From assembly GCA_025450915.1 (NCBI GenBank), contig JANWLH010000124.1, positions 356 through 64,355 of the forward strand: 64,000 nt of DNA, read 5' to 3'. The position numbers and the translations under genes were made by a program. Numbering within the stretch: position 1 is the stretch's first letter; every line of letters begins with the position of its first letter. This DNA is from Candidatus Limnocylindrales bacterium. Lineage in GTDB: Bacteria > Chloroflexota > Limnocylindria > Limnocylindrales > CSP1-4. Positions 5,361-25,160 of the stretch are shown here, piece after piece. The notes below the pieces were generated by a model, which saw only the letters and a program-made list of their open reading frames with translations, ran no database searches and had not been told where the DNA came from.

Positions 5361-5438
5361 CGACCGATTCTAACCGTCGGCAGACTCACTCCCCCGACAG
5401 CTGGTCGCGGAGGCGGACGAGGAGGCCTTCGCCGGCGA

Positions 5439-6632: not shown

Positions 6633-6697
6633 GGTTCACTCCCTCGGCGTGGAGCCGTCGCTCAACCGCGATCGAACGGACTGCTCGACGCAGCGCG

Positions 6698-6711
6698 TGC
6701 AATCGTTAGCA
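6698..6711. promoter_or_regulatory. LacI-type operator candidate, site 1 (TGCAATCGTTAGCA)
   Basis: 14-mer matching the LacI/GalR pattern TGnAAnCGnTTnCA at 9 of 10 fixed positions. It sits in the divergent region between the P450 gene and the TIM-barrel gene at 6779, and shares the core GCAATCG-TT with sites 2-4. Confidence 0.45.
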
Positions 6712-6778
6712 CCGATATCATGCTACAACCCGTGGAGGCCCGGCAGCGCGAATTGGCGCGCCATCAAAGGAGCTGCTG

Positions 6779-7741
6779 GTGGACATCGGCCTGTACACCG
6801 ACTCGTTGACGGAGCACCGCTTCGAGCCAGCCCTCGACATCGCCGCGAGCAGTGGCGTCAGGTCCATCGAGATCGCCACGGGTGGCCAGTCGAGCGCCCC
6901 GCACCTGGATCTCGACGTGCTGCTCGGCAGCGCGGCCGCACGGACGAGCTTCCTCGCGGCGTTCGAGAGCCGCGGCCTGCGAATCGCGGCACTCAACTGC
7001 TCGGCCTGGCCGATGCACCCGGTCCTGGGTCCGGCCCATTCCGAGCTGATCAGCAAGACCCTTCGGCTGGCCGGGGAGCTGGGTGTCTCGAAGATCGTGT
7101 CGATGTCCGGCTGCCCCGGCGACGGGCCGGGGTCGACGACCTTCAACTGGACCTGGTATCCCTGGCCGGCCGACGCCGTCGCGCTCGGTCAGCGGAACTG
7201 GGGCGAGGGCGTCCGCTTCTGGACCGAGAAGGTCCGGCTCGCCGAGCACTGCGGGGTCGATCGGATTGCCTTCGAGCTCCATCCGCTCCACCTGGTCTAC
7301 AACGTCCCGACGGCCGTCGCGTTCCGATCCGAGGTCGGCGAGCGGGTCGGGGTGAACTTGGATCCGAGCCACCTCTTCTGGCAGCAGATGGACCCGATCG
7401 CGGTGATCCGGGCGCTGGGCCCGGCGATCCAGCATGTCCACATGAAGGACACGGAGATCGTCGCCGGCCAGGTCGCCCTCGCGGGCGTCCTCGACAACCG
7501 TCCGTTCGAGACGCCGGCCGAACGCGCCTGGCTGTTCCGGACCGTGGGCCGCATCCATCCAGCGGCGTGGTGGCAGGAGTTCGTCGCGGCCCTGCGCCTG
7601 GCGGGCTACGACGATTCGCTGTCGATCGAGCAGGAAGACCCCTATTCGAGCCAGGAAGATGGCGTCCGCGAGGCCGCGACGTTCATCGGGAGCCTGCTCC
7701 GGCAGCCCCTGCCAGGAGGCCCTGGATCGTCTCGAACATGA
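6779..7741 (+). CDS. Sugar phosphate isomerase/epimerase (xylose isomerase-like TIM barrel)
   Basis: 320-aa ORF. GTG 6779 is preceded by AAAGGAG (6766-6772). Typical AP-endonuclease-2/IolE-type blocks are present (IEIATGG..., FELHPLHLVYN, LDPSHLFWQ, HVHMKD, SIEQED). Confidence 0.85.
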   Translation: MDIGLYTDSLTEHRFEPALDIAASSGVRSIEIATGGQSSAPHLDLDVLLGSAAARTSFLAAFESRGLRIAALNCSAWPMHPVLGPAHSELISKTLRLAGELGVSKIVSMSGCPGDGPGSTTFNWTWYPWPADAVALGQRNWGEGVRFWTEKVRLAEHCGVDRIAFELHPLHLVYNVPTAVAFRSEVGERVGVNLDPSHLFWQQMDPIAVIRALGPAIQHVHMKDTEIVAGQVALAGVLDNRPFETPAERAWLFRTVGRIHPAAWWQEFVAALRLAGYDDSLSIEQEDPYSSQEDGVREAATFIGSLLRQPLPGGPGSSRT

Positions 7742-8555
7742 ACCGGGACGACTCCACGGCCCGCTCTTCCCAGGCGAACACGCAGCTCGTCAGGATGCCG
7801 TCGAAGCCGGCCGCCCTGAGGGCGCCGAAGCAGGCCTCGAAGTCGACCTCGCCCTGGCCGATGTCGAGGTGCTGGTGGACCCGGGCCGGCGAGCCCGGCG
7901 GGTTGACGATGTAGCGCAGGCCGGACGAGGCCCGGTGGTTCAGGACGTCGGCGACGTGGACCTGGGCCAGGACCGGCGCGGCGTAGGCGATCATCGCGGC
8001 GATGTCGTCGCCGAGGTAGTACGTGTGCGGCGCGCAATAGACGTAGCGGACGAGGTCGGAGTCGATGCCCCGGACCAGGTCGACGGCCTCGCGATTGTGC
8101 TCGATGAAGTCGTCCGGGTGGGCCTCCAGGTTCAGCCGGATCCCCTCCCGCTCGAAGATCGGCAGGAGCTCTTCCATCGAGCGCCAGAACTGGGCCTCGC
8201 TCTGGGCGGCCTGGTCGGGCCGGCCGTTGAACTCGGAGTTCATCGTCGGGCAGCCGACGTCGACGCACAGCTGGATCGCCCGCTTCCAGTAGCGCACCGC
8301 GGCCAGGCGCTCGTCCTCATCCGGGCTCGACCAGCGGTAGAGGGGCAGGATCGAGGCCAGCTCGAGGCCCGTTTCGCTCAGGGCGGTCCGGAACTCGCGA
8401 ACCTTGTCGCGGTCCGCCCGCGGGTGGACGAAGAACGGGATGAAGTCAGGCCGCGGCGAGAGCTCGATCGAGTCATAGCCGATCTCCGCCGCGATCCGGC
8501 AGACCTCACCGAACGGGCGCTCCCGGAGCATGTAGGGATCGAGGGCGATCTTCAT
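7683..8555 (-). CDS. Sugar phosphate isomerase/epimerase (xylose isomerase-like TIM barrel)
   Basis: 290-aa ORF. ATG 8555 is separated by one base from the stop of the upstream 874-aa gene (TGAtATG). Motifs YDSIELSP, LNLEAHPDDF, HVADV. Confidence 0.85.
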   Translation of the reverse strand: MKIALDPYMLRERPFGEVCRIAAEIGYDSIELSPRPDFIPFFVHPRADRDKVREFRTALSETGLELASILPLYRWSSPDEDERLAAVRYWKRAIQLCVDVGCPTMNSEFNGRPDQAAQSEAQFWRSMEELLPIFEREGIRLNLEAHPDDFIEHNREAVDLVRGIDSDLVRYVYCAPHTYYLGDDIAAMIAYAAPVLAQVHVADVLNHRASSGLRYIVNPPGSPARVHQHLDIGQGEVDFEACFGALRAAGFDGILTSCVFAWEERAVESSRFMFETIQGLLAGAAGAGSR

Positions 8556-8556: not shown

Positions 8557-11181
8557 TCAGGGCGCCTCCGCTAGCCGATGTGCCAGCCGGTCGCGAAGCG
8601 TCGTTCCGCTCGCCGCGATCCGTGCGGCCATGGCGGCCCGCACGGCCGGATCATCGATCGCCGCGATCGTCTCGAGCCATCGTACGGTGCCGTCGATGAC
8701 CGCGAGGATCGCCTCGGCGTCGTCGGCGGCGAGCTGGGGGTGATCCCGGACCTCGACGTAGACCGGCGAGGTGTGCGCCGCCATGCTCGTCATGAAGGCC
8801 GACTGGATCTGGTGCTTGCTGAGCGAGCGGGCGGCGATCCACGTTCCGGCCCGGACCTCGAGGATCGTGGCCAGGCGCAGCTCGGTGGTGCCGCTCGCGC
8901 TTGCCTCGCGGGCGACGACCCGCCCGTTCACGACCAGCTCGACGGCGCTGATCACGCGCTGGGCGGCCCGGGCCTGGACCAGGACCTCGAGCGTCCCGCC
9001 GGTCGCAGGCAGGGTCAGGACTGCACCCGGCTCGTGACCGTCGACGGACATCAGGATGACCGGTCCCGATGTGGCAAACGTGCGGCCGGCCCGGACGGCC
9101 GCTGACCAGGCCCCGAAGGTGGGCGCGACATCTTGCTCGAGGTGGGCATAGGTCCTGACAGCCCCCAGGGGCACTTCGGCCGACATCTTGTCGGTGCCTC
9201 CGACGACGGGCAGCCGGTAACCGCAGTTGAGGAACCGATACCACTCGAGAATCGACGGGTTGTCGAGGCCTGGCGCGAAGCACTGCATCTCGAGCGCGTC
9301 GATCCGGCCGGCGACGATGTCGGCGGCTATCTCGGCTAAGGGCAGCGGGAAGTGGGCGCCGACCACGAGGCCCCCGGCGGCGTGGCACTGGTCGGCCCAG
9401 TCCGCGAGGAGCTCCGTGACGGCCTGGCCGATCCGGCCCTCCGGCGCGCCGCCCGAGGCGAACGGGGCCACGGGCCGACTGGCCCCGAGGAGCGCCAGGT
9501 GGCCGAGCATGTTCTGGCGATTCTCCGACCCGACGATCACCGAATGCCGGCCGCTCGGGTCGGGCTGCGAGCCCCAGGCGACGTCGGGCACGTTGATGAA
9601 ATGGTCGCCGAGCTGGGTGGCCAGGAGGTGGACGAACGTGACGTCCTCGGCCGCCGCCTGGAGGAGGGCCGTGGACGGCGCCAGGAAGTGGACGTGCGAG
9701 TCGGACGTCACCCAGCCGGCGGGCCGCAGGTCGATCGGGCGATCGAGCTCGATCGACAGGTCCCGCGTGCCGGGTCCGACCGTCAGGGTGGTCCGGACCG
9801 GGCGGTGGTCGAAGCCCTTGACGACTTCGACGTCGACCGCGCCCAGCGGCAGGTCGACCTGGAACGCACCCGGCACATAGGCGTACGTGTCGGCCCCGAG
9901 CACGAGACCGGCGCCCGTGTCCTCGAAGATGCCCGGGTTGACCTCGTCGCGATGGCCGAGCGGCGGAAGGTAGCGGCCGTCGGCGGACACGAAGCGGACC
10001 CGTGCAGGAGCCGGCTCCCCGCCGGCGGACACGGACACCGAGACCCGGACCGATGGTTCGGGCAGCTGCCTGATCGAGAGCGTGCCGTCCGGACTCGAGA
10101 GCCCGCCCGCCGGACGGCCCGGCAGGTCCCCGGCGGCGAGCGTCCAGCTGCCGAAGGTGATCCTGGCGTCCGGCGCCAGGGCGACATCGACGATCCGGCC
10201 CGCGAGCGGTTCGACGGCCCGGCCCCAGCCGGCGGGAGTGGTCGAGCTGCCGGCTCCGGACCACCCGGCCGCCCGCTGGAGCGGGCGCGAGCGGATCGCC
10301 AGGCCGAGGTCGACGCCGGGCAGGCTGTCGGCCTCGTCGTCGCCCGTCACGAGCAGCTCGCGGCGGGGCATCAGGCCCAGGGGGCTGGCGGTGCCGTAGA
10401 AAACGGTGAGGCCGGCCAGCACGACGTCGGTTCCCGGCCTCCCCTCCCCCAGCGAGGTGAGCCGCAGGCTGGTGGGCGCTTCATCCTCCGCCAGCGCGAT
10501 CGCGTGCAGCCAGAGGGTCAGGTCGTCGGTCGCCGACGGGACGTAATCCCGGGCGCCGGACTGGCCGGCAGCCCACGTTCCGGGCAGCGTCGTCAACGGG
10601 CCCGCGTGTCCGGCCGGGGCGAGCCGGCCGGGCTCCTGGCGGGCGAACGGGCCGCGCCAATCGATGACCTCGTCGGCCCGGTGCCCGACGGCCTCGAAGG
10701 GCAGGAATCCCCAGCCGATGATCCCGTCGGCGATCTCGAACCGGCGCCGGACGTCGAGGGTGCGGGTCCGGCCGTTCGTCAAGGCAAGCTCGTAGCGGGC
10801 CAGCGGCTCACCGGTCGGCAGGACCCAGCCGACGGGCATCCCGGCTGGTCGATCCCCCCTCGGATCGCGCCAGCTGTCGGCGAAGTGGGCGACCACCAGG
10901 TGACCGGGGCGCGCGCCGCCGGGGGCCTTGCTGGACAGCTCGAGGCTGACGCCGTCGCCGGCGATGACCCAGCGACGGCCTGCGGCACGTGTCCCCAGGC
11001 TGAAGGGCAATCCCCGCAGGACCACGTCACCTTCGGGCAGCCGCCCGAGGCCGGCCCGGTACAGCGGATGGAGGCGTGCGCCAAGCTCGGCGTCGGAAGC
11101 ATTCCAACCGTTGGCCAGGTCGACCGGTCTTGCCAGTGGACTGACCAGGTGCAGGGCTGGGGCGGAGCGTCCGGTGGTCAT
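8557..11181 (-). CDS. Large PHP-domain metallohydrolase-like protein (CehA/McbA-like), paralogue A, 874 aa; N-terminal ~480 aa unassigned
   Basis: Single long ORF with GGAAGG upstream of ATG 11181. The C-terminal half has TSDSHVHF (DxHxH), GSENRQNMLGHLALLG, VVGAHFPLP and GGTDKMS, typical of PHP/CehA-McbA-type hydrolases. It is preceded by a beta-sandwich-like segment (RVRFVSADGRYLPP...VDVEVVKGF). There is no signal peptide. Confidence 0.85.
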   Translation of the reverse strand: MTTGRSAPALHLVSPLARPVDLANGWNASDAELGARLHPLYRAGLGRLPEGDVVLRGLPFSLGTRAAGRRWVIAGDGVSLELSSKAPGGARPGHLVVAHFADSWRDPRGDRPAGMPVGWVLPTGEPLARYELALTNGRTRTLDVRRRFEIADGIIGWGFLPFEAVGHRADEVIDWRGPFARQEPGRLAPAGHAGPLTTLPGTWAAGQSGARDYVPSATDDLTLWLHAIALAEDEAPTSLRLTSLGEGRPGTDVVLAGLTVFYGTASPLGLMPRRELLVTGDDEADSLPGVDLGLAIRSRPLQRAAGWSGAGSSTTPAGWGRAVEPLAGRIVDVALAPDARITFGSWTLAAGDLPGRPAGGLSSPDGTLSIRQLPEPSVRVSVSVSAGGEPAPARVRFVSADGRYLPPLGHRDEVNPGIFEDTGAGLVLGADTYAYVPGAFQVDLPLGAVDVEVVKGFDHRPVRTTLTVGPGTRDLSIELDRPIDLRPAGWVTSDSHVHFLAPSTALLQAAAEDVTFVHLLATQLGDHFINVPDVAWGSQPDPSGRHSVIVGSENRQNMLGHLALLGASRPVAPFASGGAPEGRIGQAVTELLADWADQCHAAGGLVVGAHFPLPLAEIAADIVAGRIDALEMQCFAPGLDNPSILEWYRFLNCGYRLPVVGGTDKMSAEVPLGAVRTYAHLEQDVAPTFGAWSAAVRAGRTFATSGPVILMSVDGHEPGAVLTLPATGGTLEVLVQARAAQRVISAVELVVNGRVVAREASASGTTELRLATILEVRAGTWIAARSLSKHQIQSAFMTSMAAHTSPVYVEVRDHPQLAADDAEAILAVIDGTVRWLETIAAIDDPAVRAAMAARIAASGTTLRDRLAHRLAEAP

Positions 11182-11237: not shown

Positions 11238-11251
11238 TGCAATCGGTTGCG
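11238..11251. promoter_or_regulatory. LacI-type operator candidate, site 2 (TGCAATCGGTTGCG)
   Basis: Lies 4 nt downstream of the -10-like hexamer, in the 83-bp divergent region between paralogue A and iolD. The half-sites TGCAATC/GGTTGCG are near-palindromic. Confidence 0.5.
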
Positions 11252-11264
11252 CAAGGAGACCACG

Positions 11265-13151
11265 GTGAAGACTGTCCGGCTGACTGTGGGCCAGGCCGTT
11301 GTCCGCTTCTGCGCGAGCCAGTACGTCGAGCGGGACGGGGTCGAGCACCGGTTCATCGCCGGCTTCTGGGGAATCTTCGGCCATGGCAACGTGGCCGGCC
11401 TCGGCCAGGCGCTCGAGGAGCTCGGCGACGCCGAGGCGATGCCCTTCTACAAGCCGCAGAACGAGCAGGCCCAGGTCCACATTGCGACCGCCTTCGCCAA
11501 GCACCACAACCGGCTCCAGGCATACGCCTGCATCTCGTCGGTCGGGCCCGGCGCCCTGAACATGATCACCGGCGCCGCCACCGCGACGGTCAACCGGATC
11601 CCGGTATTGCTCTTCCCCAGCGACTACTTCGCCAACCGGGTTCCCGACCCGGTCCTCCAGCAGGTCGAGCACCCGATCGAGCGGGACACCAGCGTCAACG
11701 ACGCGTTCCGCCCGGTCTCCCGGTTCTTCGACCGCATCTCGCGGCCCGAGCAGCTGCTGGCCTCGCTGCCAGCCGCGTTCCGGGTGTTGACGGATCCCGC
11801 CGAGACCGGTGCCGCGACGGTGTCGCTGCCCGAGGACGTGCAGGCCGAGGCCTTCGACTGGCCGGTTGCCTTCTTCGAGCGGCGGGTCTGGCGGGTCCGC
11901 CGGCCGCTCCCCGAGGCCGCCGAGCTGGCCGACGCAGTGGGCTTGATCAAGACCGCCAAGGCGCCGGTCATCGTGAGCGGCGGCGGCACGATCTACTCCG
12001 AGGCAACCGGCGAGCTGGCCGAGATCGCCAGCCGCTTCGGGATCCCGGTTGTCGAGACCCAGGCGGGCAAGGGCGCGCTGGCCTGGGATCATCCCCAGAA
12101 CATGGGCCCGGCGGGGACGAACGGCGGCGTGGCAGCCAATCGCCTGCTCCGGGACGCCGACCTGGTGATCGGCGTCGGTACCCGGATGGGCGATTTCGTG
12201 ACGGCCTCGCAGACGTCGTTCCAGAATCCCGCGGTCGCGATCGTCGGCATCAATGTCGCGCCGGTCGACGCCCACAAGATGCGCGCCGTGCCGGTCGTGG
12301 CCGACGCGCGGGAGGCCCTCCGGGCACTCGTCAGCCAGCTCGCCGCGGCGGGCTACGCCGGGACGTCGGCGAGCTACCGGGAGCGCGCCAGTCGGTTCAA
12401 GCAGGAATGGGATTCGATCGTCAGTGCGCTGCGCACGGTCAACGGCGCGCCGGGCGACCTGGGCCAGGCCGAGGTGATCGGCGTGGTCAACGAGGTGGTC
12501 GGCGGGCACGCGGCGGTGATCTGCGCGGCCGGCAGCCTGCCCGGTGACCTGCTCCGCCTGTGGCGCGTCAACGATCCCAAGGCATATCACGTCGAGTACG
12601 GCTTCTCGTGCATGGGCTACGAGATCGCGGCCGGCCTCGGCGTGCGGCTCGCCGAACCGGACCGGGAGGTCGTCGTGATGGTCGGCGACGGCTCCTACCT
12701 GATGATGAACTCGGAGATCGTCACCGCCGTGGCCGAAGGTCTCAAGCTGACGATCGTGGTCCTCGACAACCACGGCTTCCAGTGCATCCTGGCGCTCCAG
12801 CGCTCGGTTGGCGTGCCCGACTTCGGCAACGAGCTCCGCTTCCGCGACAAGGGCACAAATCGCCTGACCGGTCCGTACGTGCCCGTCGACTTCCGGCTGC
12901 ACGCCGAGGCGATGGGTGCCCTGGCCCTCCTCGCCCGGACGCCGGACGAGCTGCGCGACGCGCTGGCCAAGGCCCGCGCCGCCGACCGGGTCAGCGTCAT
13001 CCTCGTGCCCACCGACCCCGAAAAGCGGGTGGGCGGCTTCGACTCGTGGTGGGACGTGCCGGTGGCCGGCGCGAGCCAGCAGGACGGCGTGCGGCGCGCC
13101 CGGGCTGGCTACGACGAGGCTCGGGTCCTCCAGCGGACCGACCTTCATTGA
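11265..13151 (+). CDS. iolD: 3D-(3,5/4)-trihydroxycyclohexane-1,2-dione acylhydrolase (ThDP-dependent, IolD)
   Basis: Lies in ORF 11247..13151. GTG 11265 is preceded by AAGGAG (11252-11257). N-terminus VKTVRLTVGQAVVRF..., GIFGHGNV, and a ThDP motif region (GDGSYLMMNSEIVT) are typical of IolD. Confidence 0.92.
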   Translation: MKTVRLTVGQAVVRFCASQYVERDGVEHRFIAGFWGIFGHGNVAGLGQALEELGDAEAMPFYKPQNEQAQVHIATAFAKHHNRLQAYACISSVGPGALNMITGAATATVNRIPVLLFPSDYFANRVPDPVLQQVEHPIERDTSVNDAFRPVSRFFDRISRPEQLLASLPAAFRVLTDPAETGAATVSLPEDVQAEAFDWPVAFFERRVWRVRRPLPEAAELADAVGLIKTAKAPVIVSGGGTIYSEATGELAEIASRFGIPVVETQAGKGALAWDHPQNMGPAGTNGGVAANRLLRDADLVIGVGTRMGDFVTASQTSFQNPAVAIVGINVAPVDAHKMRAVPVVADAREALRALVSQLAAAGYAGTSASYRERASRFKQEWDSIVSALRTVNGAPGDLGQAEVIGVVNEVVGGHAAVICAAGSLPGDLLRLWRVNDPKAYHVEYGFSCMGYEIAAGLGVRLAEPDREVVVMVGDGSYLMMNSEIVTAVAEGLKLTIVVLDNHGFQCILALQRSVGVPDFGNELRFRDKGTNRLTGPYVPVDFRLHAEAMGALALLARTPDELRDALAKARAADRVSVILVPTDPEKRVGGFDSWWDVPVAGASQQDGVRRARAGYDEARVLQRTDLH

Positions 13152-13227: not shown

Positions 13228-14466
13228 ATGCCAGGACCTGGGATCGAGCTAATCGGCGCGGAAGAGACCGCCGAAGTCCTCGAGGTGATCTCGAGCGGCT
13301 TCCTGAGCCGCTACGGGCCGTCCGACAATCCCGCATTCGGTGCGAAGGTCCACCGCATCGAAGGCGAGGTGGCCAGGCTGGCCGGCGTTCGCTTCGCGCT
13401 GGGCCTCAGTGGCGGCGGCTCGGCCGGGCTGTGGATCACGCTGCTCAGCCTGGGCGTCGGGGCCGGCGACGAGGTGATCGTGCCCGGCTTCACGTTCGTG
13501 GCCTCCATCTCGGCGATCGTCTATACCGGCGCGACGCCGGTCCTCGCCGAGGTCGACCGGAGCTTCGACCTGGACCCCGTCGATGTCGAGGCTCGGATCA
13601 CGCCGCGGACCAAGGCGATCCTCGTCGTCCACATGCTCGGCGGCCCGGCCAGGCTCGACGAGCTCAAGGCAATCGCCGACAAGCACGGCATCCCGCTCGT
13701 CGAGGACTGCGCCCAGGCGTTCGGGGCCACCTATCACGGGGTGGGCGTGGGTGGCATCGGGGCCGCCGGGGTGTACAGCTTCAACGAGTACAAGACGATC
13801 ACCTGCGGTGACGGCGGGATGATCGTCACCGACGACGAGGCACTCTACGAGCGGGCCTTTGCGATGCACGACCAGGGCCACGCCCCGGACCGCCTCGAGT
13901 CGAAGTACGCGCCCCGGCCGTTCCTGGGCATGAACTTCCGGATGACCGAGCTGTCCGGCGCGGTCCTGCTGGCCCAGGTTCGCAAGCTCGACATGATCAC
14001 CGCGCACCTGCGGGCCAACAAGGAGATCGTCCAGCAGTTCCTCGAGGAGGAGCCGGCGATCGAGTTCCGGACGCTGCCCGACCCCGACGGCGACCTGGCG
14101 ACCCACCTTGTCGTGGTCCTGCCGTCGGCCGACATCGCGACCAAGGTGGCCAGGGAGGTCGGCTCGATCACCCTGTCCGAATCGGGCTGGCACGTCTACA
14201 GCCGGATGAATCACGTCCTCGAGCGGCGGACCGTCACCGGCAAGGGCTGCCCGTTCAATTGCGAGATCGCCGACCACTCCCATGGTGATTACCGCATCGG
14301 CATGCTGCCCCAGACCGACGCCCTCCTCGAGCGCTCGATCAGCATCGGGATCGGCGTGCGCGATGCCAATCTCGCGCCGTTCGGCCTGCGCATGCGCGAT
14401 GGCGCAGACGAGGCCCGGACGACCGCCCTGACCTTCCGGGGCGCAGTCCAGAAGCACCTGGCGTGA
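13228..14466 (+). CDS. DegT/DnrJ/EryC1/StrS-family PLP-dependent aminotransferase
   Basis: ATG 13228 is preceded by GAGGGAGAG. Blocks GDEVIVPGFTFVASI, LVEDCAQAFGA and SFNEYKTITCGDGGMIVT (PLP lysine context) are present. It lies between iolD and iolC on the same strand. Confidence 0.9.
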   Translation: MPGPGIELIGAEETAEVLEVISSGFLSRYGPSDNPAFGAKVHRIEGEVARLAGVRFALGLSGGGSAGLWITLLSLGVGAGDEVIVPGFTFVASISAIVYTGATPVLAEVDRSFDLDPVDVEARITPRTKAILVVHMLGGPARLDELKAIADKHGIPLVEDCAQAFGATYHGVGVGGIGAAGVYSFNEYKTITCGDGGMIVTDDEALYERAFAMHDQGHAPDRLESKYAPRPFLGMNFRMTELSGAVLLAQVRKLDMITAHLRANKEIVQQFLEEEPAIEFRTLPDPDGDLATHLVVVLPSADIATKVAREVGSITLSESGWHVYSRMNHVLERRTVTGKGCPFNCEIADHSHGDYRIGMLPQTDALLERSISIGIGVRDANLAPFGLRMRDGADEARTTALTFRGAVQKHLA

Positions 14467-14482: not shown

Positions 14483-15445
14483 GTGACGGACGCGTTCGTT
14501 ATTGGCCGGATCGGCGTCGACCTGACGCCGGAGGCGCCGCGCACCTCCCTGGCGGATGCCACGAGGTTCGTCCGCGCGATCGGCGGCTTTGCCGGGAACA
14601 TCGGCATCGGCCTGGCCAGGCTGGGCATCTCGACCGCGGTCATCTCGAGCATCGGCGACGACGGTCACGGCGATCACGTGCGGCAGGAGCTGGCCACCGA
14701 GGGAATCGACGTTGGCAGCCTGCTCACCCGACCTGGGTCCCGGACCCAGGTCGCCTTCTTCGAAGCGTGGCCGCCGGAGCATTTCCCGGTGACCTTCTAT
14801 CGGCCGGATCCACCGCCGGATACCCAGCTGGCGATGGCCGACGTCCCGCTGGCCGCCCTGGAGGTGGCCCCGATCGCGATCTTCTCGGGAACGCTCCTGG
14901 CCGCCGAGCCCGCCCGCTCAACGACCCTCGAGATGCTCAACGCCCGATCCGCGGCACGCCCGCGCCGGGGCACGTCATGGACGATTCTCGACCTCGACTG
15001 GCGGCCGACGCTGTGGGCTGATCCGGGGGCGTACCCGGCGCTCATCGACGCGGCCGCTCAGCTCAGCGACGTGCTCATCGGCAGCGATTCCGAGTTCGCC
15101 GCAGCAGGCCTGCGACCGGGCGAGGCCATCACGGCCGGGCGGGCGCTGACGGTCCTCAAGCACGGGCCCGGTGGCGTCACACTGCTGGCCGACGGCTCGC
15201 GCCGCTCGTTGCCGGGGATTGCCGTCGAGGTCGTCTGCGGCCTCGGGGCCGGCGATGCCCTCACGGCGGCGTTCGCGGCCGGGTTGCTCGCCGGGCTCGA
15301 TCCGATCCGCGCTCTCGAGCGTGGCAACGCAGCCGGTGCGATCGTGGCGTCGCGCCTGATGTGCAGCGCGGCCATGCCGATCCCCGACGAAATCGACAAG
15401 CTGCTGACCACGAGTCCGATCCGGCCCAAGGAGATCCGCCTGTGA
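14483..15445 (+). CDS. iolC: 5-dehydro-2-deoxygluconokinase (PfkB family, IolC)
   Basis: 320-aa ORF with GTG start. N-terminus VIGRIGVDLTPE..., GGFAGNIGIGLARLG, and C-terminal PfkB motif GAGDALTAAF. Confidence 0.88.
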   Translation: MTDAFVIGRIGVDLTPEAPRTSLADATRFVRAIGGFAGNIGIGLARLGISTAVISSIGDDGHGDHVRQELATEGIDVGSLLTRPGSRTQVAFFEAWPPEHFPVTFYRPDPPPDTQLAMADVPLAALEVAPIAIFSGTLLAAEPARSTTLEMLNARSAARPRRGTSWTILDLDWRPTLWADPGAYPALIDAAAQLSDVLIGSDSEFAAAGLRPGEAITAGRALTVLKHGPGGVTLLADGSRRSLPGIAVEVVCGLGAGDALTAAFAAGLLAGLDPIRALERGNAAGAIVASRLMCSAAMPIPDEIDKLLTTSPIRPKEIRL

Positions 15446-16368
15446 CGCGTCCTGATGAGCCCCGGGAACTGACGATCCACCCGGCGAAGCTGCCGTCCCG
15501 GCTGCCGCCCGAGATGCTCCACATCAAGCCGGGTGCCGATCGTGTCGTGGCCACGGATCCGGCGCGTTCGGGCTGGCGCTATCTCTCGTTTCGATCGTTC
15601 GGGCTGGCCGAGGGCGAGGTCGCGCTGCTCGATTCGCCGGAGCAGGAAGCGGCCATCGTCACGATCTCCGGTGGCGGCGTCGAGATCGCCCTGGATGGCC
15701 GCGCCAACCTCGAGCTGACCGGCCGGCCGTCGGTCTTCGAGGGCCTGCCCTGGAGTGCCTACATCCCGGCCGGGACCACGGCCCGGATCATCGGCCGGCC
15801 ACTGCCCGGCCAGCGGTCCGTCGTCGCAATCGCCCAGGCACCCCTGACCGGCCGGACGGGGATTGCCCGCGAGCCGATCGTGGTCGCCCCGAACGACGTC
15901 CAGGTCGAGCTCAGGGGCGCCGGCAACTGCACTCGCCAGGTCAACAACATCATGATGCCGGACTTCCCCGCCGACCGGCTCCTGATCTGCGAGGTCTTCA
16001 CGCCGTCGGGCAACTGGTCCGGCTGGCCACCGCACAAGCACGATGTCGACGATCCGCCCCGCGAGGCAGTCCTCGAGGAGACCTACTTCTACCAGTTCCG
16101 GCGGCCCGAGGCCTGGGCCATCCAGCGGATCTATCACCGTGACGGGTCACGCGACTTGCTGCTGCCCGTCCACCACGGCGACCTGGTGATCGTCGACCAG
16201 GGGTACCACCCGTTCATCGCCACGCCGGGCTACGACGCCTATTTCATCAACGCACTGGCCGGCGACCGGCGGACGATGGCCAACACCGACGACCCCGACC
16301 TCGCCTGGGTCCGGACGCTGTGGCCGGACATGGAACCCGATCCTCGCCTGCCGCTCGTCAAGCCGTGA
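15442..16368 (+). CDS. iolB: 5-deoxy-glucuronate isomerase (IolB)
   Basis: GTG 15442 overlaps the iolC stop (GTGA), with AAGGAG at 15428-15433. Blocks AGNCTRQVNNI, SGNWSGWPPHKHD and GYHPF are characteristic of IolB. Confidence 0.9.
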   Translation: MTRPDEPRELTIHPAKLPSRLPPEMLHIKPGADRVVATDPARSGWRYLSFRSFGLAEGEVALLDSPEQEAAIVTISGGGVEIALDGRANLELTGRPSVFEGLPWSAYIPAGTTARIIGRPLPGQRSVVAIAQAPLTGRTGIAREPIVVAPNDVQVELRGAGNCTRQVNNIMMPDFPADRLLICEVFTPSGNWSGWPPHKHDVDDPPREAVLEETYFYQFRRPEAWAIQRIYHRDGSRDLLLPVHHGDLVIVDQGYHPFIATPGYDAYFINALAGDRRTMANTDDPDLAWVRTLWPDMEPDPRLPLVKP

Positions 16369-17333
16369 TCGCGAACGGCTCCGGCGACGTCTCGCCGGCG
16401 TCCTCGGACGTGGCCGCGCGCGACGGCCTGCGCCGCCGCCTCCAGCGCCTCGGCGGCCCGGATGGGGTGATGGCGGGCATCGCCATCGACCATCGCGACA
16501 GCCTGCGGGTCACGCTCGAGAAGCGCGGTGTCAGCGGCCTGGCGATCGGCGACATGCGCCGGCTCAAGCTCGCCCTCACCCGGGTCCTCGCACCGGCGGC
16601 CACCGCCCTGATGCTCGACGCCGAGCTGGGGGCGCTCGCATTCGAGCAGGGCGCGGTGCCCGCCTCGACCGGGCTGATCATGCCCCTCGAGGCGCAGGGC
16701 TACGAGGTGGCCGGGGATGGCCGGACCACCAGCCTGCTCGGCGACTTCTCACCGGCCCGGGCCGTCGTGTACGGCGCCGATGCCTGCAAGCTGCTCCTGC
16801 CCTATCGCGCCGACGACGAGCCGTCGGCTGCGGCCCAGGATGCCCTTGCGGCGGCCGTGGCGAGGAGCTGCCACGCACTGGGCATGCCGCTGGTCGTCGA
16901 GCCGGTCGTCTACCGCTGGTCGACCGAGTCGGAGACGCAGTACGCGGCCGCGTTTCCTGGACTCCTGCTCAGCGCCGTCGGACGGCTCCAGCCGCTCGGC
17001 GCAGACCTCCTCAAGGTGGCCTTCCCGGTGCTCGACCTCGGCGCGACCGGCGAGCTCGGGGCGATCGACGCCTGCCGGGCGCTGGCCGACGCGTGCGCCG
17101 AGACGCCGTGGGTGCTGCTCGGAGCCGGTGTCGACGTCGACACGTTCGTCGAACAGATCCGGCTCGCCGGCTCGGCCGGTGCATCCGGGTTCCTCGCCGG
17201 TCGCGGGATCTGGGGCCCCGCCCTGGCGGTCGATCCGGGCGAGGCCGAGAGAATCGCCCGCGACGTGGCCTTGCCGGCCTTCGAACGCTGCCGGGAGGTC
17301 GCCCGGCGGACCGGCCGGCCGCTCCGGGCCTGA
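16365..17333 (+). CDS. Class I aldolase of the LacD/DUF2090 type; candidate 5-dehydro-2-deoxyphosphogluconate aldolase (IolJ analogue)
   Basis: GTG 16365 overlaps the iolB stop (GTGA). Blocks AIDHRDSL, KLLLPY and GADLLKVAFPV (Schiff-base lysine context as in tagatose-bisphosphate aldolase LacD). Its position directly after iolC-iolB fits this role. Confidence 0.75.
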   Translation: MIANGSGDVSPASSDVAARDGLRRRLQRLGGPDGVMAGIAIDHRDSLRVTLEKRGVSGLAIGDMRRLKLALTRVLAPAATALMLDAELGALAFEQGAVPASTGLIMPLEAQGYEVAGDGRTTSLLGDFSPARAVVYGADACKLLLPYRADDEPSAAAQDALAAAVARSCHALGMPLVVEPVVYRWSTESETQYAAAFPGLLLSAVGRLQPLGADLLKVAFPVLDLGATGELGAIDACRALADACAETPWVLLGAGVDVDTFVEQIRLAGSAGASGFLAGRGIWGPALAVDPGEAERIARDVALPAFERCREVARRTGRPLRA

Positions 17334-18205
17334 TGCCGCCGATCGTGGCCGGGGCCGTGACGGCCGTCGCCTATGCCATCTCGACGCTCACCTCGGCGCG
17401 GGCCAGCCGGATCGCCGGTCCCGTGCCGTCGGTGGCCGGGGTGATGGTGGTCGGGTCGATCCTGTTGCTGCCGGTTGCCCTGCTCGTCACGCCGCTGCCG
17501 ACGGTGCCCGCCGTGGCCGCTTCGACGTTCGCCTGGTCGGCCGTCGCCGGCGCGGCCAACGTCGGCGGCCTCCTGCTCGCCTACGCGGGCTACCGGATCG
17601 GCGCGGTGGGCGTCGTCTCGACGATCGGCTCGACCGAAGGGGCGATCGCTGCGGTCATCTCGGTCCTGGCCGGGCAGGTCCTGGCCGCGGGGTCCGGGCC
17701 GGCCCTGGCGCTGGTCGCGATCGGGGTGATGCTGGCAGCGACCGGCGGTGGCCATGAGCTCGAGGAGGGCCGGACCATCGAGCGTCGGCAGTCGCTGCGG
17801 GCGGCCGGCTTCGCGGGCTGTGGCGCCCTGCTCCTGGGCATCGGGCTGTTCGTGGCCGGCCAGGTGAGCACGACCCTGCCGGCGGCGTGGGTCGTCCTGC
17901 CGGGCCGAATCGTCGGGGTCGCGCTGGTGACGATTCCGGTGACCCTGATGGGTCGCCTGCGGATCCCGCGGGCGGCCCTGAGGTACGTCCTTGCGACGGG
18001 CCTGGTCGAGGTGATCGGCCTGACCTCGTTCTCGATCGGCGCCCGGCAGGACATCGCGGTGACCTCGGTCCTCGGCTCGATGTTCGCGCCGCTGGCGGCG
18101 CTCGCGGCCTTCGTCCTGTTCAAGGAACGCCTCGCCCGGCGGCAGGTGCTGGGAATCGCCCTGGTCGTGGCCGGGATCGCGATCCTCGGTGCGCTGACCG
18201 TCTAG
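17333..18205 (+). CDS. EamA/DMT-family membrane transporter
   Basis: ATG 17333 overlaps the preceding stop (TGATG). About 10 hydrophobic helices in two EamA-like halves. Confidence 0.8.
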   Translation: MPPIVAGAVTAVAYAISTLTSARASRIAGPVPSVAGVMVVGSILLLPVALLVTPLPTVPAVAASTFAWSAVAGAANVGGLLLAYAGYRIGAVGVVSTIGSTEGAIAAVISVLAGQVLAAGSGPALALVAIGVMLAATGGGHELEEGRTIERRQSLRAAGFAGCGALLLGIGLFVAGQVSTTLPAAWVVLPGRIVGVALVTIPVTLMGRLRIPRAALRYVLATGLVEVIGLTSFSIGARQDIAVTSVLGSMFAPLAALAAFVLFKERLARRQVLGIALVVAGIAILGALTV

Positions 18206-18232: not shown

Positions 18233-19075
18233 ATGCAGCTGGTCTACAACTCGAACTCGACGATGCACCTGCCGGCGCTGATGCAGATCCGGCTGGCCCG
18301 GGAGACCGGCTGGGACGGGGTCTTCCTGCGCGAGGAGCATCTCCGCCGGTATCTCGCCCAGGGCTATGACCTGGCCAGCCTCCGATCAGCGCTGGCCGGG
18401 CTCGAGCCGGTCAACCTGGGGGCCCTGGCCGACGTCGAACGCTGGCAGCCTGACGAGCGGTCGAACATGCTCCGCGAGGCGGACGCGCTGACGGAGCTGG
18501 CAGCCGGTATCGGCGCCACGTTCATCCAGCTCCTCAGCGGGCCGGTCCAGCCGGGCGGCACGTATCGCGGACCGGGCGGCCTGTCGCGCGCGGAACGGCG
18601 CGACGTGACGGCGAGCGCGCTGCGCGCCGTTGCTCGCACCGGCGCAGCGCGCGGGATTCGCTACTACCTCGAACCGATCGCCTGGACGCCCCTGGCGCCG
18701 CTCGCCGAGGCCGTCGAGGCGGTCGATGCAGCGGAGGCCGACAACATCGGCCTGGTCCTCGACTTCTGGCACCTCTGGCAGGCCGGAACGACCCCCGACG
18801 AGGTCGCCCGGCTCGATCCGCGGATCATCTTCGGGGTCGATTTCGCCGATTCGCTCGGTGCACCCGGTTCGCCCGACCCGGACCAGCTCAGCCGGCGGGT
18901 GTGGCCCGGTGAAGGTTCGATGCCCCTCGCCGAATGGGTTGACGCCGTGCGTGCCACCGGCTTCGATGGCTGGTGGGACAATGAGCTGTACAGCCCGTTT
19001 CATTGGGAGCGGGCGGACCCGGTCGCCGTGGCAAGCGGGCTTCGCGAGGTGCTCCTCGAGGTGCTCCGGACCTGA
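18233..19075 (+). CDS. Sugar phosphate isomerase/epimerase (xylose isomerase-like TIM barrel)
   Basis: 280-aa ORF with ATG start preceded by AGGAAGG. Blocks YYLEPIAW, LVLDFWHLW and DNELYSP are typical of the family. Confidence 0.85.
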   Translation: MQLVYNSNSTMHLPALMQIRLARETGWDGVFLREEHLRRYLAQGYDLASLRSALAGLEPVNLGALADVERWQPDERSNMLREADALTELAAGIGATFIQLLSGPVQPGGTYRGPGGLSRAERRDVTASALRAVARTGAARGIRYYLEPIAWTPLAPLAEAVEAVDAAEADNIGLVLDFWHLWQAGTTPDEVARLDPRIIFGVDFADSLGAPGSPDPDQLSRRVWPGEGSMPLAEWVDAVRATGFDGWWDNELYSPFHWERADPVAVASGLREVLLEVLRT

Positions 19076-19117: not shown

Positions 19118-19122
19118 CGGTG

Positions 19123-19136
19123 CGCAATCGGTTGCT
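19123..19136. promoter_or_regulatory. LacI-type operator candidate, site 3 (CGCAATCGGTTGCT)
   Basis: The core GCAATCGGTTGC is identical to site 2. It lies 6 nt after the -10-like hexamer and about 10 nt upstream of the regulator start, consistent with autoregulation. Confidence 0.5.
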
Positions 19137-19145: not shown

Positions 19146-20243
19146 ATGAGGTCCGGTGAGAGCGGGCGCTTGGTAGCCAGCGGATACCCGGCCGGACCAC
19201 GCCGGCGGATCCTGCTCAAGGATGTCGCCACCTCGGCGAACGTCTCCGGCTCGACCGCTTCGCGGGCCCTGGCCGACGACCCCCGGATCAGCCTGGCAAC
19301 CCGGCTGTCCGTGAAGGCCGCCGCGGCCGAGCTCAACTACGTCCCCAACGCGGCGGCTCGCAGCCTGCGCATGAAGCACACCCGGACACTCGGCCTGCTG
19401 ATCCCCGACCTGCGCGATCCGGTCCATGGCCAGGTCGCCTCGGGCTTCGAGGAAGAGGCCCGCCGGAGCGGCTACTGCGTGATCATGGTGGCCGGCGAGA
19501 ACGAGCCGGCCCGCGAACGCCTGGCCCTCAAGATCTTTGCCGAGCATGGCGCCGATGGTGTCGCGATCGTGTCCGGCGCGATCTCGCCCAGGGAGGCTCG
19601 CGAGCGGGTCGACCCGGAACGCCTGATCCTCGTCCAGCCCGACCACCACAGTCTGCCCCGCCGCGAAGGGGTCGTGCCGCCCGGGGTGATCCTGACCGAC
19701 GATGCCGGCGGGCTCAAGGCCGCCGTCAATCACCTCGTCGACAATGGCTACCGCCGGATCGCGTACGTCGAGGGCGGCGGCGGCGCGACCAACAAGGTTC
19801 GCTCGGAAGCAGTCGCGACCACCCTCCGCAGCCGGGGCGTCAAGACGGCGCTGCGCACGTTCGGCGCCGGCGACGACACCTGGCGGGACCCGACCGAGCT
19901 GGCTTCGGAGATCGCCACGGACCTGCCCGAAGCCCTGGTCTGCTACGACGACAAGCTGGCCCTCGCCCTGATGGACGCGTTGCGCAAGCTCAGGATCCGG
20001 GTCCCCGAAGATATCGGCATGGTCGGCTTCGACGGGATCCCGTTCGCGGCCATCTCCAATCCCCGCCTGACGACCGTGGCCACGCCGGCCGGCGAGATGG
20101 GCCGCCTCGCCGCGGCGTCGCTGGTCCGGACGATCCAGGTGGGTGCCCGCCTCGAGGCGGTCCTCCTGCCACCCGACCTGATCGTCCGCGAGAGCACCCG
20201 GACCTTGTCCCCGCCGACCCGCAACCACGACCCGCGGAGCTGA
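19146..20243 (+). CDS. LacI-family transcriptional regulator (candidate repressor of the inositol island)
   Basis: Lies in ORF 18630..20243. The HTH ILLKDVATSANVSGSTASRALADDPRISLATRLSVKAAAAELNYVPNAAARSL is followed by a periplasmic-binding-protein-like core. The start is ATG 19146 or TTG 19170 (uncertain). Confidence 0.9.
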   Translation: MRSGESGRLVASGYPAGPRRRILLKDVATSANVSGSTASRALADDPRISLATRLSVKAAAAELNYVPNAAARSLRMKHTRTLGLLIPDLRDPVHGQVASGFEEEARRSGYCVIMVAGENEPARERLALKIFAEHGADGVAIVSGAISPREARERVDPERLILVQPDHHSLPRREGVVPPGVILTDDAGGLKAAVNHLVDNGYRRIAYVEGGGGATNKVRSEAVATTLRSRGVKTALRTFGAGDDTWRDPTELASEIATDLPEALVCYDDKLALALMDALRKLRIRVPEDIGMVGFDGIPFAAISNPRLTTVATPAGEMGRLAAASLVRTIQVGARLEAVLLPPDLIVRESTRTLSPPTRNHDPRS

Positions 20244-20247: not shown

Positions 20248-21291
20248 ATGAGCACCTTCACGGTGGGCGACCCGGCCAGCATCGGAGTTGCCTTCCTGGG
20301 CGTCGGCCGGATGGGCCAGACCCATATCCAGACCCTTGGCGGGATACGCAACGTACGGGTCCTCGTGGTTGCCGACCAGGATCCGGCGGCGGCCGAGCGC
20401 GGGCGGCAGATTGCTCGGGCCGGACGGGCGACGAGCGACCCGCTCGATGCGATCAACGACCCGGCGGTCGAGGCGGTGGTCATCTCCACGCCCACCGATA
20501 CCCATGCCACCCTGATCGAGGCAGCCCTGCGGGCAGGCAAGGCGATCTGGAGCGAGAAGCCGATCGCCCTGAACCTGGTCGAGACCAGCCGGGTCGTCAA
20601 CGTGTGGCGGACGGCGGGCCTTCCCGTGCAGCTCGGCTTCATGCGCCGGTTCGACCCGGGCTATGTCCGGGCCAAGGCCCTGATCGATGCCGGCGAGCTG
20701 GGCCGGATCGAGCAGTTCCGGGCCTATTCACGCGACACCTACCCGCCGTCCGCCGAGTTCATCAAGGGCAGCGGTGGCTCGTTCCTGGACATGGCCGTCC
20801 ACGACTTCGACCTGGCCCGGTTCCTGGTTGGCGAGGTCGAGGAGGTCTCGTCGTGGGGCAATGTCCTGATCGACGAGCGGTTCAGCAGAGGTGACGACAT
20901 CGACACGTCGGTGACGATGCTCCGCTTCCGCAACGGCGCCCTGGGCGTTGTCGAGATGTCGCGTCGCTCCGTCTGGGGCTACGACATCCGGACCGAAGTG
21001 GCCGGCGCAACGGGCAAGGTCGTCGTCGAGGCGCCCGTCAAGACGCCGATCACCTTCTCGCGCCGGTTCGGCTTCGAGGGCGATCACTACGAGAACTTTC
21101 CCGACCGCTTCGAGGTCGCCTATCGGCTCGAGCTCGAGGCGTTCTTCGAGACGCTGGCGGCAGGGCGAACGCCCACGCCGGGACCCGAGGAGGCCCTCGA
21201 AACACTGCGCCTGGCCGTTGCCGCCCGGCGCAGCTGGCGCGAAGGCCGGCCGGTGAAGCTCGACGACGTGACGATCGAGAATCCGGACTGA
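20248..21291 (+). CDS. iolG: Gfo/Idh/MocA-family oxidoreductase, inositol 2-dehydrogenase-like (IolG)
   Basis: 347-aa ORF. Rossmann N-terminus VAFLGVGRMGQTH, EKP motif (IWSEKPIA), and VQLGFMRRFDPGYV, which closely resembles the B. subtilis IolG block VQVGFMRRYDSGYV (from memory). Confidence 0.82.
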   Translation: MSTFTVGDPASIGVAFLGVGRMGQTHIQTLGGIRNVRVLVVADQDPAAAERGRQIARAGRATSDPLDAINDPAVEAVVISTPTDTHATLIEAALRAGKAIWSEKPIALNLVETSRVVNVWRTAGLPVQLGFMRRFDPGYVRAKALIDAGELGRIEQFRAYSRDTYPPSAEFIKGSGGSFLDMAVHDFDLARFLVGEVEEVSSWGNVLIDERFSRGDDIDTSVTMLRFRNGALGVVEMSRRSVWGYDIRTEVAGATGKVVVEAPVKTPITFSRRFGFEGDHYENFPDRFEVAYRLELEAFFETLAAGRTPTPGPEEALETLRLAVAARRSWREGRPVKLDDVTIENPD

Positions 21292-23961: not shown

Positions 23962-23975
23962 TACAAACGGTTGCA
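23962..23975. promoter_or_regulatory. LacI-type operator candidate, site 4 (TACAAACGGTTGCA)
   Basis: Begins 3 nt after the -10-like hexamer and shares CGGTTGCA with sites 2 and 3. Confidence 0.45.
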
Positions 23976-24008
23976 CAAGAGGATGCTTGATGCCCGGATC
24001 TCGAGCCT

Positions 24009-25136
24009 GTGGTCACCAACCAGCCCTGGCCTGGGCGTCCCGCGGACTCCGACTTGGCTGAGCCGGTTCCCGCGATCGAGCTACGCCACGCGACGAAACG
24101 ATATGGCGAAGCCGTCGCCCTCGATGACGTCTCGATGGTCATCCAGCCGGGCGAGTTCTTCTGCCTGCTGGGCCCCTCCGGTTGCGGCAAGACGACGACC
24201 CTCAACCTGATCGGTGGGTTCATCCCGCTGACTTCGGGCGACCTGCTGATCGAGGGTCACACGGTCAACGACCTGCCGCCCCACAAGCGCAATGTGAATA
24301 CGGTCTTCCAGAGCTACGCCCTCTTTCCCCACATGACCGTGGCGGAGAACGTTGCCTTCGGCCTGCGCATGGAGAAGCTGTCGAAGGCCGACATCGCCCA
24401 GCGCACCCGTGAGTACCTGGAGCTCGTCGGGCTGAGCGGCCTCGCCGGTCGCCTGCCGGCGCAGATGTCGGGCGGGCAGCAACAGCGGGTCGCCCTGGCG
24501 CGGGCTTTGGCCAAACGGCCGGCGGTGCTGCTCCTCGACGAGCCGCTCGGGGCCCTGGACCTCAAGCTCCGCAAGCAGATGCAGACCGAGCTGGCCCGAA
24601 TCCATCGGCAGGTCGGGACGACCTTCGTCTTCGTCACCCACGACCAGGAAGAGGCCCTGTCGATGGCGACCCAGATCGCCATCATGTCGAACGGCACGGT
24701 CCTCCAGCAGGGCTCCCCACGGGAGGTCTACGATCGGCCCGCGAACCGGTTCGTGGCCGATTTCGTCGGCGACACGAACTTCCTGGCGGGTACCGTCCGA
24801 CGCGACGGTGGCCAGGCCGTCTTCGATGTCGGCAGCGCGGTCGTGGACGTGCAGGGCGACGCCGAGGCGGGGCCGGCGACGCTGATGATCCGCCCCGAGT
24901 TCCTGGCCCTGCGCCAGGGCGACGCGACCGACGGCCCGCGCGGATTGACGGCCCGCGTCGTCAACGTCGCCTTTCTGGGCAATCACACGCGAATCACGGT
25001 CTCCACCGCGGCAGGCGAGATGGTGGTGGTGAGACCGCACGGGACCAGGGATTCGACCGCAGACACGCAGCGCGAATTGGGTGAGGAGGTTTGCGTATGG
25101 TGGCGAACCGAGAACGCAGCACTGATCCGCGAGTAG
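24009..25136 (+). CDS. ABC transporter ATP-binding protein, PotA-like
   Basis: Walker A GPSGCGKTT, signature MSGGQQQRVALARAL, Walker B LLLDEPLGALD, and VFQSYALFPHMTVAENVAFGLRM, which is typical of PotA-type ATPases. The start (GTG 24009) is uncertain because there is no clear RBS. Confidence 0.88.
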   Translation: MVTNQPWPGRPADSDLAEPVPAIELRHATKRYGEAVALDDVSMVIQPGEFFCLLGPSGCGKTTTLNLIGGFIPLTSGDLLIEGHTVNDLPPHKRNVNTVFQSYALFPHMTVAENVAFGLRMEKLSKADIAQRTREYLELVGLSGLAGRLPAQMSGGQQQRVALARALAKRPAVLLLDEPLGALDLKLRKQMQTELARIHRQVGTTFVFVTHDQEEALSMATQIAIMSNGTVLQQGSPREVYDRPANRFVADFVGDTNFLAGTVRRDGGQAVFDVGSAVVDVQGDAEAGPATLMIRPEFLALRQGDATDGPRGLTARVVNVAFLGNHTRITVSTAAGEMVVVRPHGTRDSTADTQRELGEEVCVWWRTENAALIRE

Positions 25137-25160
25137 CGACATTGATTGGAGGAGGATGGA

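Follow-up and report, generated by a model that had tools for sequence, protein, structure and literature searches.

Why should the gene of an aminotransferase stand inside an operon for inositol catabolism? This question is raised by a stretch of 64 kb (in what follows, the window; about 70% G+C) of contig JANWLH010000124.1 from the Candidatus Limnocylindrales assembly GCA_025450915.1, in which a gene at positions 13228..14466 of the + strand codes for a KdnA-like pyridoxal phosphate (PLP)-dependent aminotransferase (AT) of 412 residues between iolD and an iolC-like kinase gene. As judged from its sequence and its predicted structure, AT is an intact DegT-family aminotransferase of a KdnA-like branch that lies outside the StsC/BtrS group. 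The answer that we favour, tentatively and with a little less than even confidence, is that AT is a catabolic enzyme which takes a free aminocyclitol of the inosamine type as substrate and feeds the keto-cyclitol to the iol enzymes.

The initial annotation had described a DegT/StrS-type aminotransferase at these positions, closely spaced between iolD and iolC on the same strand. The description proved correct in its open reading frame (ORF), coordinates, family and flanking iol genes, and in the short gaps of 76 nt (iolD to AT) and 16 nt (AT to iolC), within which no promoter-like or terminator-like site was found. The reading frame starts at ATG 13228, with GAGGGAGAG just 5' of it, and ends at TGA 14464-14466. 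Its coding signal is clear, with a G+C content at third codon positions (GC3) of 0.89 compared to about 70% G+C over the window; GC3 was also the filter used to sort genuine genes from the numerous spurious ORFs of the window. The protein matches the Pfam family DegT_DnrJ_EryC1 (PF01041) with 266 bits against a cutoff of 19.8 bits (E = 6e-79). It has the Schiff-base lysine and not the histidine of the dehydratase subgroup, and the E-D-x-x-Q PLP-binding motif is present. The lysine, K189, is located within YSFNEYKTITCGDGG and is aligned with that of ArnB and KdnA; K189, D160 and Q163 are invariant, and E159 and S184 are, like D160 and Q163, unchanged across the clade and outgroup alignments. 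The AlphaFold model (pLDDT 95.1) exhibited a two-domain fold like that of aspartate aminotransferase, and the top 50 Foldseek matches of this model were all DegT-family structures, with TM scores of 0.71-0.90. Nine soil metagenome runs hold near-identical DNA (share of words 0.95-1.0). Contigs from two soil metatranscriptome runs (X21 and X22), about 92% identical and presumably from related Limnocylindria, cover parts of AT (window 13372-14031) and give a weak sign of expression in situ; these contigs are too fragmentary, and a carry-over of DNA is too hard to exclude, for them to prove expression or co-transcription of AT.

The closest solved relative of AT is KdnA of Shewanella oneidensis (PDB 5K8B), an 8-amino-3,8-dideoxy-D-manno-octulosonate (Kdo8N) transaminase, which was aligned over residues 4-376 with 267 bits and 39% identity and has the same lysine motif, YSF-x-x-x-K-TITCG-[DE]-GG. 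In the same way, the comparison of the AT model with KdnA by Foldseek led to E = 6e-39, TM scores of 0.86/0.90 and a root-mean-square deviation of 2.4. The other solved relatives follow with lower scores, ArnB with 170 bits and perosamine synthase with 165 bits. A kinship of AT with the StsC/BtrS inosose aminotransferases, on which the initial annotation had built, did not hold: the inosose-type comparison set, made of BtrR, RbmB and the entries named 'glutamine-scyllo-inositol transaminase', reached 125-148 bits, compared to 267 for KdnA and 170 for ArnB. With the AT model, BtrR and RbmB came at Foldseek ranks 33-45, or 25-45 when the 'glutamine-scyllo-inositol transaminase' entries are included. 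StsC, BtrR/BtrS, RbmB and MosB share with AT the Pfam family and the fold, and they carry out the reversible inosose/inosamine (or 2-deoxy-inosose) transamination that we propose for AT, but they are biosynthetic enzymes whereas AT sits among catabolic genes.

AT is not an ortholog of KdnA either. In a neighbour-joining tree KdnA falls outside the clade of Limnocylindria sequences, among other metagenomic sequences, and AT possesses a C-terminal helix of about 35 residues past the aligned region. KdnA is biosynthetic, making Kdo8N for lipopolysaccharide (LPS) in a pair with an alcohol oxidase, whereas AT is found in LacI-controlled catabolic iol operons; the genes annotated in the window and in two related loci (L033 and L044) included no Fe-dependent alcohol dehydrogenase of the KdnB type and no Kdo genes. 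The substrate of KdnA is a free sugar acid, not a nucleotide sugar, and a free substrate is the trait that we take AT to share.

The 120 best database relatives of AT share 79% identity or more with it, and all but four of them count 412 residues (the others 411 or 430); the few with a named source are mostly Limnocylindrales/Chloroflexota metagenome-assembled genomes. Clustering at 50% reduced this group to one full-length representative, and the next full-length relatives are at most 54% identical. A scan with one genome per species gave 221 relatives, of which the best 80 (loci L001-L080), almost all from Limnocylindria (Chloroflexota), were compared. In the neighbour-joining tree the 82 clade sequences (81 from related loci and the AT of the window) are monophyletic, and their subclades correspond to four gene contexts, all of them iol-like, as seen by mapping the window proteins onto the loci and by Pfam/NCBIfam annotation of representative loci. 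Some genomes hold two AT paralogs 15-22 kb apart.

Type A loci have the arrangement of the window, iolD-AT-iolC-iolB-iolJ. Types B and D exhibit AT followed by dehydrogenases of the GFO/IDH/MocA family, and in type B additionally by an F420 enzyme; divergent from AT are genes for an IolE-like protein (TIGR04379, 170 bits), a lactonase, a levoglucosan-dehydrogenase-like enzyme (276 bits), an HpcH aldolase, IolD (846 bits) and a short-chain dehydrogenase/reductase (SDR). Type C is made of iolD, a split transketolase and iolB (237 bits against a cutoff of 205), then AT, lacI, an ATP-binding cassette (ABC) importer and a Zn-dependent alcohol dehydrogenase (Zn-ADH). Types B, C and D lack IolJ and IolC. 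The split transketolase, with N- and C-terminal halves coded by separate genes, lies between iolD and iolB (positions 6967-8917 of L070; also in L066, L068, L071 and L075), in the place otherwise held by iolC and iolJ. Together with the transaldolase genes described below, it hints at a non-phosphorylative or transketolase-based processing of the ring-opened product.

Partners of AT were counted over those 53 loci in which each flank extends for 8 kb or more. GFO/IDH/MocA dehydrogenases were present in 43, an IolD-family protein within 10 kb in 40, a PHP-type hydrolase in 37 and a Pot-like importer in 22 of them; two loci lacked IolD, IolB, GFO/IDH/MocA and Pot-like transporter genes altogether. 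The co-occurrence of the AT clade with iolD-, iolB- and iolG-like genes and a Pot-type importer, suggested as a check when the gene was first noticed, is therefore a feature of many genomes (22/53 for the importer). The insertion itself is conserved as well, since all 15 IolD orthologs with at least 72% identity carry AT, and the data as a whole exclude a chance insertion. The statement that canonical iol operons have no such aminotransferase also stood up: about 60 further IolD loci, drawn from Actinomycetota, Bacillota, Verrucomicrobiota and Deinococcota as well as from other iolD paralogs of Limnocylindria, had no AT homolog within 6 kb. The last of these form a second, AT-less iolD lineage (68-71% identity), with the order lacI(-) iolD iolG (L098, L100, L101, L106 and L107); at least at the level of the class, the AT-bearing operons thus come on top of a simpler inositol cluster.

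More distant relatives of AT keep other company. Those from a plasmid database, with at most 42% identity, belong to a heptose/radical-SAM cluster (Roseibium) and to a region of non-ribosomal peptide synthetase and LPS genes (Rhizobium), both biosynthetic, and two metagenomic relatives (P0124 and P0128, 41-47% identity) stand in biosynthetic-looking clusters. Because relatives at 40-47% identity occur in such clusters, the catabolic link is specific to the Limnocylindria clade and what we infer from context is limited to it.

The operon of the window resembles the canonical iol operon (IolG-E-D-B-C-J-A) in that its IolD and IolB pass the equivalog cutoffs and that IolC-, IolG- and IolJ-like genes, an IolI-like TIM barrel and a repressor are present in one operon. 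On the + strand, iolD (3D-(3,5/4)-trihydroxycyclohexane-1,2-dione hydrolase, 11265..13151) scored 884 bits on TIGR04377 (cutoff 715); after AT come the iolC-like PfkB kinase (14483..15445), with IolC TIGR04382 as best family but 254 bits against a cutoff of 300, and iolB (5-deoxy-glucuronate isomerase, 15442..16368; TIGR04378, 251 bits, cutoff 205). The iolB start overlaps the iolC stop by 4 nt, and that of the following IolJ-like aldolase (16365..17333; DeoC/LacD family, best model 'tagatose-bisphosphate aldolase') likewise overlaps the iolB stop. Further downstream, also on the + strand, are an EamA/DMT-family membrane transporter (17333..18205), the IolI-like, inosose-isomerase-like TIM barrel (18233..19075; PDB 1i60 IolI, E = 1.8e-9), a LacI-family repressor (19146..20243) and an iolG-like GFO/IDH/MocA dehydrogenase (20248..21291; TIGR04380, 336 bits, below the cutoff of 355). 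The operon differs from the canonical one by the additional AT, PHP-type hydrolases and EamA transporter, by an operator that it has in common with the genes of a polyamine-type ABC importer, of an F420 oxidoreductase and of a Zn-ADH, and in that neither a TIGR04379 IolE nor an IolA was detected; IolA, and any aldehyde dehydrogenase, were not found in the 64-kb window. No Rfam element was found in the window.

This operator was spotted by eye upstream of iolD and of the importer genes and was afterwards tested by pattern counts; the inverted-repeat search had missed it because its half-sites are too short. The pattern TGCAATCGGTTGCRCA, a half-palindrome of the LacI type, has three matches in the window, compared to 0.75 expected, and all three are in promoter regions: TGCAATCGGTTGCGCA (11238..11253, + strand) directly 5' of iolD, TGCGCAATCGGTTGCT (19121..19136, as read on the + strand) about 10 nt 5' of lacI, and TACAAACGGTTGCACA (23962..23977, + strand) 5' of the importer operon, adjacent to a promoter-like site at 23931-23959. 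A weaker, operator-like site with two mismatches, TGCAATCGTTAGCAC (6696..6713), lies between a P450 gene (- strand) and a TIM-barrel gene (6779-7741, + strand). The operator also bears on the start of iolD: the start assigned mechanically, TTG 11247, falls within the operator and is less plausible than GTG 11265, which is probably the true start (628 residues), 3' of an AAGGAGA ribosome-binding site.

The same motif is found in the related loci. Most loci of type A, and several of type C, have a site identical to TGCAATCGGTTGCGCA 5' of iolD; in type A the motif precedes iolD, lacI and the ABC ATPase gene, and in types B, C and D it stands 15-40 nt 5' of the AT start codon. In type C the importer operon begins, behind the operator, with AT. 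Across L001-L080 the operator is often directly 5' of AT, iolD, lacI, ABC ATPase, transaldolase and hydrolase genes. These sites support a regulon across Limnocylindria, defined by one conserved predicted operator, that would comprise AT, the iol genes and the importer, and it is this operator that gives substance to the regulon surmised in the initial annotation.

The importer that had been assigned to the same regulon as an amine-type system is indeed present at 24009-28133 (+ strand) and its ATPase (24009..25136) belongs to the PotA subfamily (TIGR01187, 367 bits, cutoff 355.6), but the binding protein (25146..26339; Pfam SBP_bac_6) is only remotely PotD/PotF-like, PDB 4gl0 and PotD/PotF being matched at 3e-10 to 1e-4 (PotD model, 3e-10). 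Two ABC permeases (26363-27280 and 27255-28133) follow, then an F420-dependent LLM-class oxidoreductase (28144..29145), which is linked to AT in type B loci, and the Zn-ADH (29185..30186), all on the + strand. The best family match of the latter is IolM, a scyllo-inosose 3-dehydrogenase and thus a cyclitol dehydrogenase, with 229 bits against a cutoff of 450; in type C loci the Zn-ADH is the terminal gene of the AT-lacI-ABC operon.

Taken together, these contexts suggest a route in which an amine would be taken up through the Pot-like ABC system of the LacI regulon, AT would move the amino group onto a 2-oxo acid, and the resulting keto-cyclitol (an inosose) would be dehydrated or oxidised to a cyclic 1,2-dione; IolD would then open the ring and its product may be handled by IolB, IolC and the aldolase. 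An aminocyclitol is the most likely substrate because the link with IolD is the most constant one, because in types B and D AT and an IolE-like gene face each other, because the Zn-ADH resembles a cyclitol dehydrogenase, and because MosB, of the DegT family, interconverts scyllo-inosose and scyllo-inosamine reversibly with glutamate (PMC6668481). We infer the substrate class, the direction of the reaction and the TIM barrel or dehydrogenase that makes the IolD substrate. A candidate for the dehydratase/isomerase step, proposed from its sequence, is an AP_endonuc_2 TIM-barrel protein (7683..8555, - strand; Pfam, 176 bits) coded divergently from iolD. Its homologs (47-65% identity) adjoin iolD in many iol clusters of Actinomycetota (L123, L146, L155 and L160), and its best weak match is the IolO epimerase. 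The idea that it is the actinobacterial IolE was not borne out, the protein having only 25 bits on TIGR04379 and its actinobacterial homologs likewise no match. Of the inosamine entry point proposed in the initial annotation, the genomic side thus stands (conservation, co-occurrence, operator, no genes for nucleoside diphosphate (NDP)-sugars in the Pfam-annotated loci), and the phylogenetic premise does not.

Several observations weigh against an inosamine as the substrate. AT is no nearer to the known inosose aminotransferases than to the NDP-sugar enzymes, and KdnA acts on the terminal aldehyde of an acyclic/pyranose sugar acid, not on a ring ketone. The presence of iolG within the AT operon is superfluous for a pure inosamine route. 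A canonical IolE was not detected in the cluster of the window, its three TIM barrels scoring at most 25 bits on TIGR04379. The resemblance of the binding protein to PotD/PotF is remote (E about 1e-10). Finally, the PHP hydrolases, Zn-ADH, F420 oxidoreductase, transketolase and transaldolase have no assigned role in the simple scheme. The aldehyde substrate of KdnA, iolG with these unexplained enzymes and the lack of a canonical IolE keep in play two other explanations, in which the substrate is an amino-glycosyl-inositol or an acyclic intermediate.

The first of them, which we regard as doubtful but as the best of the competitors, is that AT works on the amino sugar contained in an amino-glycosyl-inositol or pseudo-oligosaccharide taken up by the cell, such as glucosamine-inositol from mycothiol or from glycosylphosphatidylinositol-like material, or an aminoglycoside fragment. 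The keto-sugar formed would eliminate its aglycone, and the freed inositol or cyclitol would be degraded by IolG and the iol enzymes. This would account for iolG and a full myo-inositol route sharing a regulon with an amine-type importer and with no sugar-type inositol transporter. The AT clusters are moreover rich in GFO/IDH/MocA dehydrogenases, including a levoglucosan-dehydrogenase-like one, and in TIM barrels, which are parts of keto-glycoside elimination pathways. One of the latter, an AP_endonuc_2 protein (6779..7741, + strand) kept in type A and type D loci, has 2zds and 2-hydroxy-3-keto-glucal hydratase (8ro4) as its best solved relatives; the hydratase is the second best and the similarity is weak (E = 5e-9), and no glycoside hydrolase or lyase was confidently identified.

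The conserved PHP-type hydrolases could, in such a pathway, strip an acyl or phosphoryl group off the conjugate. Both are CehA/McbA-family metallohydrolases of the - strand, one of 874 residues (8557..11181; NF038032, 134 bits, cutoff 80), conserved next to iolD in type A and type C loci, and its paralog of 860 residues (21322..23904; NF038032, 143 bits, same cutoff). The metallohydrolase domain makes up the C-terminal third of each and the N-terminal 480 residues or so form beta-sandwich domains. Neither has a Pfam match, and a PDB sequence search with the 860-residue protein was empty. Folding of this protein, tried as a way to find the conjugate that it cleaves, gave a generic PHP fold with beta-sandwich domains (AlphaFold, pLDDT 76; matches to 2anu and EndoQ). 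Its family is a small one, with 551 homologs, and among the best matches listed those with a named source are nearly all from Chloroflexota/Limnocylindrales. What counts against an amino-sugar target is that the most constant partner of AT is IolD (40/53 loci), and that the head-to-head pairing of AT with the IolE-like gene in types B and D fits better a direct action on a cyclitol.

A further and more speculative explanation, which we hold to be unlikely, is the catabolism of diaminocyclitols, namely the 2-deoxystreptamine or streptamine cores of aminoglycosides, by the reverse of 2-deoxystreptamine biosynthesis. The polyamine-type importer would take up the diamine and AT would strip the first amine; the Zn-ADH would reduce or oxidise the intermediate, after which AT would strip the second amine to give an inosose or 2-deoxy-inosose. 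A further IolG-like oxidation or a dehydration would lead to the trihydroxycyclohexane-1,2-dione cleaved by IolD. Such a route would account for the type C operon of AT, Zn-ADH and Pot-type importer, for the constant link with IolD and for the lack of a canonical IolE.

It is also rather improbable that the step of AT follows the opening of the ring and that its substrate is the aldehyde of 5-deoxy-D-glucuronate, which IolD forms, 2-deoxy-5-keto-gluconate or malonic semialdehyde. In the last case the formation of beta-alanine would replace the missing IolA. Run in reverse, such a step after ring opening would bring an omega-amino polyhydroxy acid into the pathway. The terminal sugar-acid aldehyde transaminated by KdnA, the nearest characterised relative, fits such a substrate, as do the position of AT directly 3' of iolD and the failure to find IolA in the window. 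However, in type C the importer operon opens with AT after its operator, and in types B and D AT is paired with IolE-like and GFO dehydrogenase genes, which speaks for an early step, and a substrate entering after IolD would leave the tight linkage of AT and IolD unexplained. We judge the conversion of malonic semialdehyde to beta-alanine unlikely because three of the four context types lack IolJ and IolC, which would supply malonic semialdehyde.

That AT is an ordinary biosynthetic NDP-keto-sugar aminotransferase, for a cell-envelope or natural-product sugar, and stands in an iol operon by accident is very unlikely: source annotations do read 'dTDP-4-amino-4,6-dideoxygalactose transaminase', the solved relatives next after KdnA are ArnB and perosamine synthase, and the relatives at 40-47% identity are in biosynthetic-looking clusters, but the equivalog models all score below their cutoffs (LegC 190 bits against 420, ArnB 178 against 631, PseC 169 against 423.5), neither the window cluster nor the Pfam-annotated representative loci contain a nucleotidyltransferase, 4,6-dehydratase or glycosyltransferase, and the place of AT in LacI-repressed catabolic operons is kept across dozens of species in four independent arrangements.

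If AT does act on a free aminocyclitol, as we favour, the system to compare is rhizopine catabolism. To our knowledge, the moc genes are the sole described catabolic system for a free aminocyclitol, scyllo-inosamine or 3-O-methyl-scyllo-inosamine (rhizopine), and they are incompletely understood; the fate of aminoglycoside cores in soil is, as far as we know, essentially undescribed. Rhizopine catabolism is iol-dependent and involves the GFO/IDH/MocA dehydrogenase MocA and the TIM-barrel protein MocC. MocB is a sugar-type binding protein, whereas the importer of the window is of the Pot type with an SBP_bac_6/Pot-like binding protein. The regulators differ too, MocR belonging to the GntR family and having a C-terminal domain that resembles an aminotransferase, and the regulator of the window being of the LacI type. 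The likeness is limited to the generic GFO/IDH/MocA and TIM-barrel families, both abundant in AT clusters, and no MocDEF-type Rieske/ferredoxin-reductase domains were found among the genes of the window cluster. The moc genes listed for Sinorhizobium meliloti (mocCABRDEF) include no aminotransferase enzyme, and MocC is given as a 'protein of unknown function' (PMC10107442).

We found no description of an AT-bearing iol operon in the published literature. The loci thus exhibit an iol-type operon with a transaminase entry or side step that is confined to an abundant uncultured soil lineage, the Limnocylindria, a class of soil Chloroflexota carrying one to three paralogous iol-like operons, each with the same KdnA-like AT. 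If the substrate is an aminocyclitol, the inositol pathway would have a new branch of entry and the DegT family a new specificity; a niche in the nutrition of Limnocylindria would be suggested as well, which may be of help for their cultivation.

Other genes of the window were also recorded. A cytochrome P450 and a second luciferase-like oxidoreductase (4338-6632, - strand) are divergent from the TIM-barrel gene at 6779, and several type A loci retain the P450. Genes of the transaldolase family are met repeatedly in the AT clusters (31142-32218 in the window). At 35799-39457, an SDR, a DUF4432 protein (310 bits) and an amidohydrolase adjoin an EamA transporter and a methyltransferase. A separate sugar-utilisation region (44158-63552) codes for a YhfZ/GntR-type regulator, two SDRs, a glyoxalase-fold protein, a sugar ABC system (SBP_bac_1/8 with two permeases) and an apiosidase-like glycosidase (52510-53790), together with a DeoC aldolase, an FGGY kinase, a 2-hydroxyacid dehydrogenase, a class II aldolase, a RpiB/LacAB protein and a Dak1 kinase subunit.

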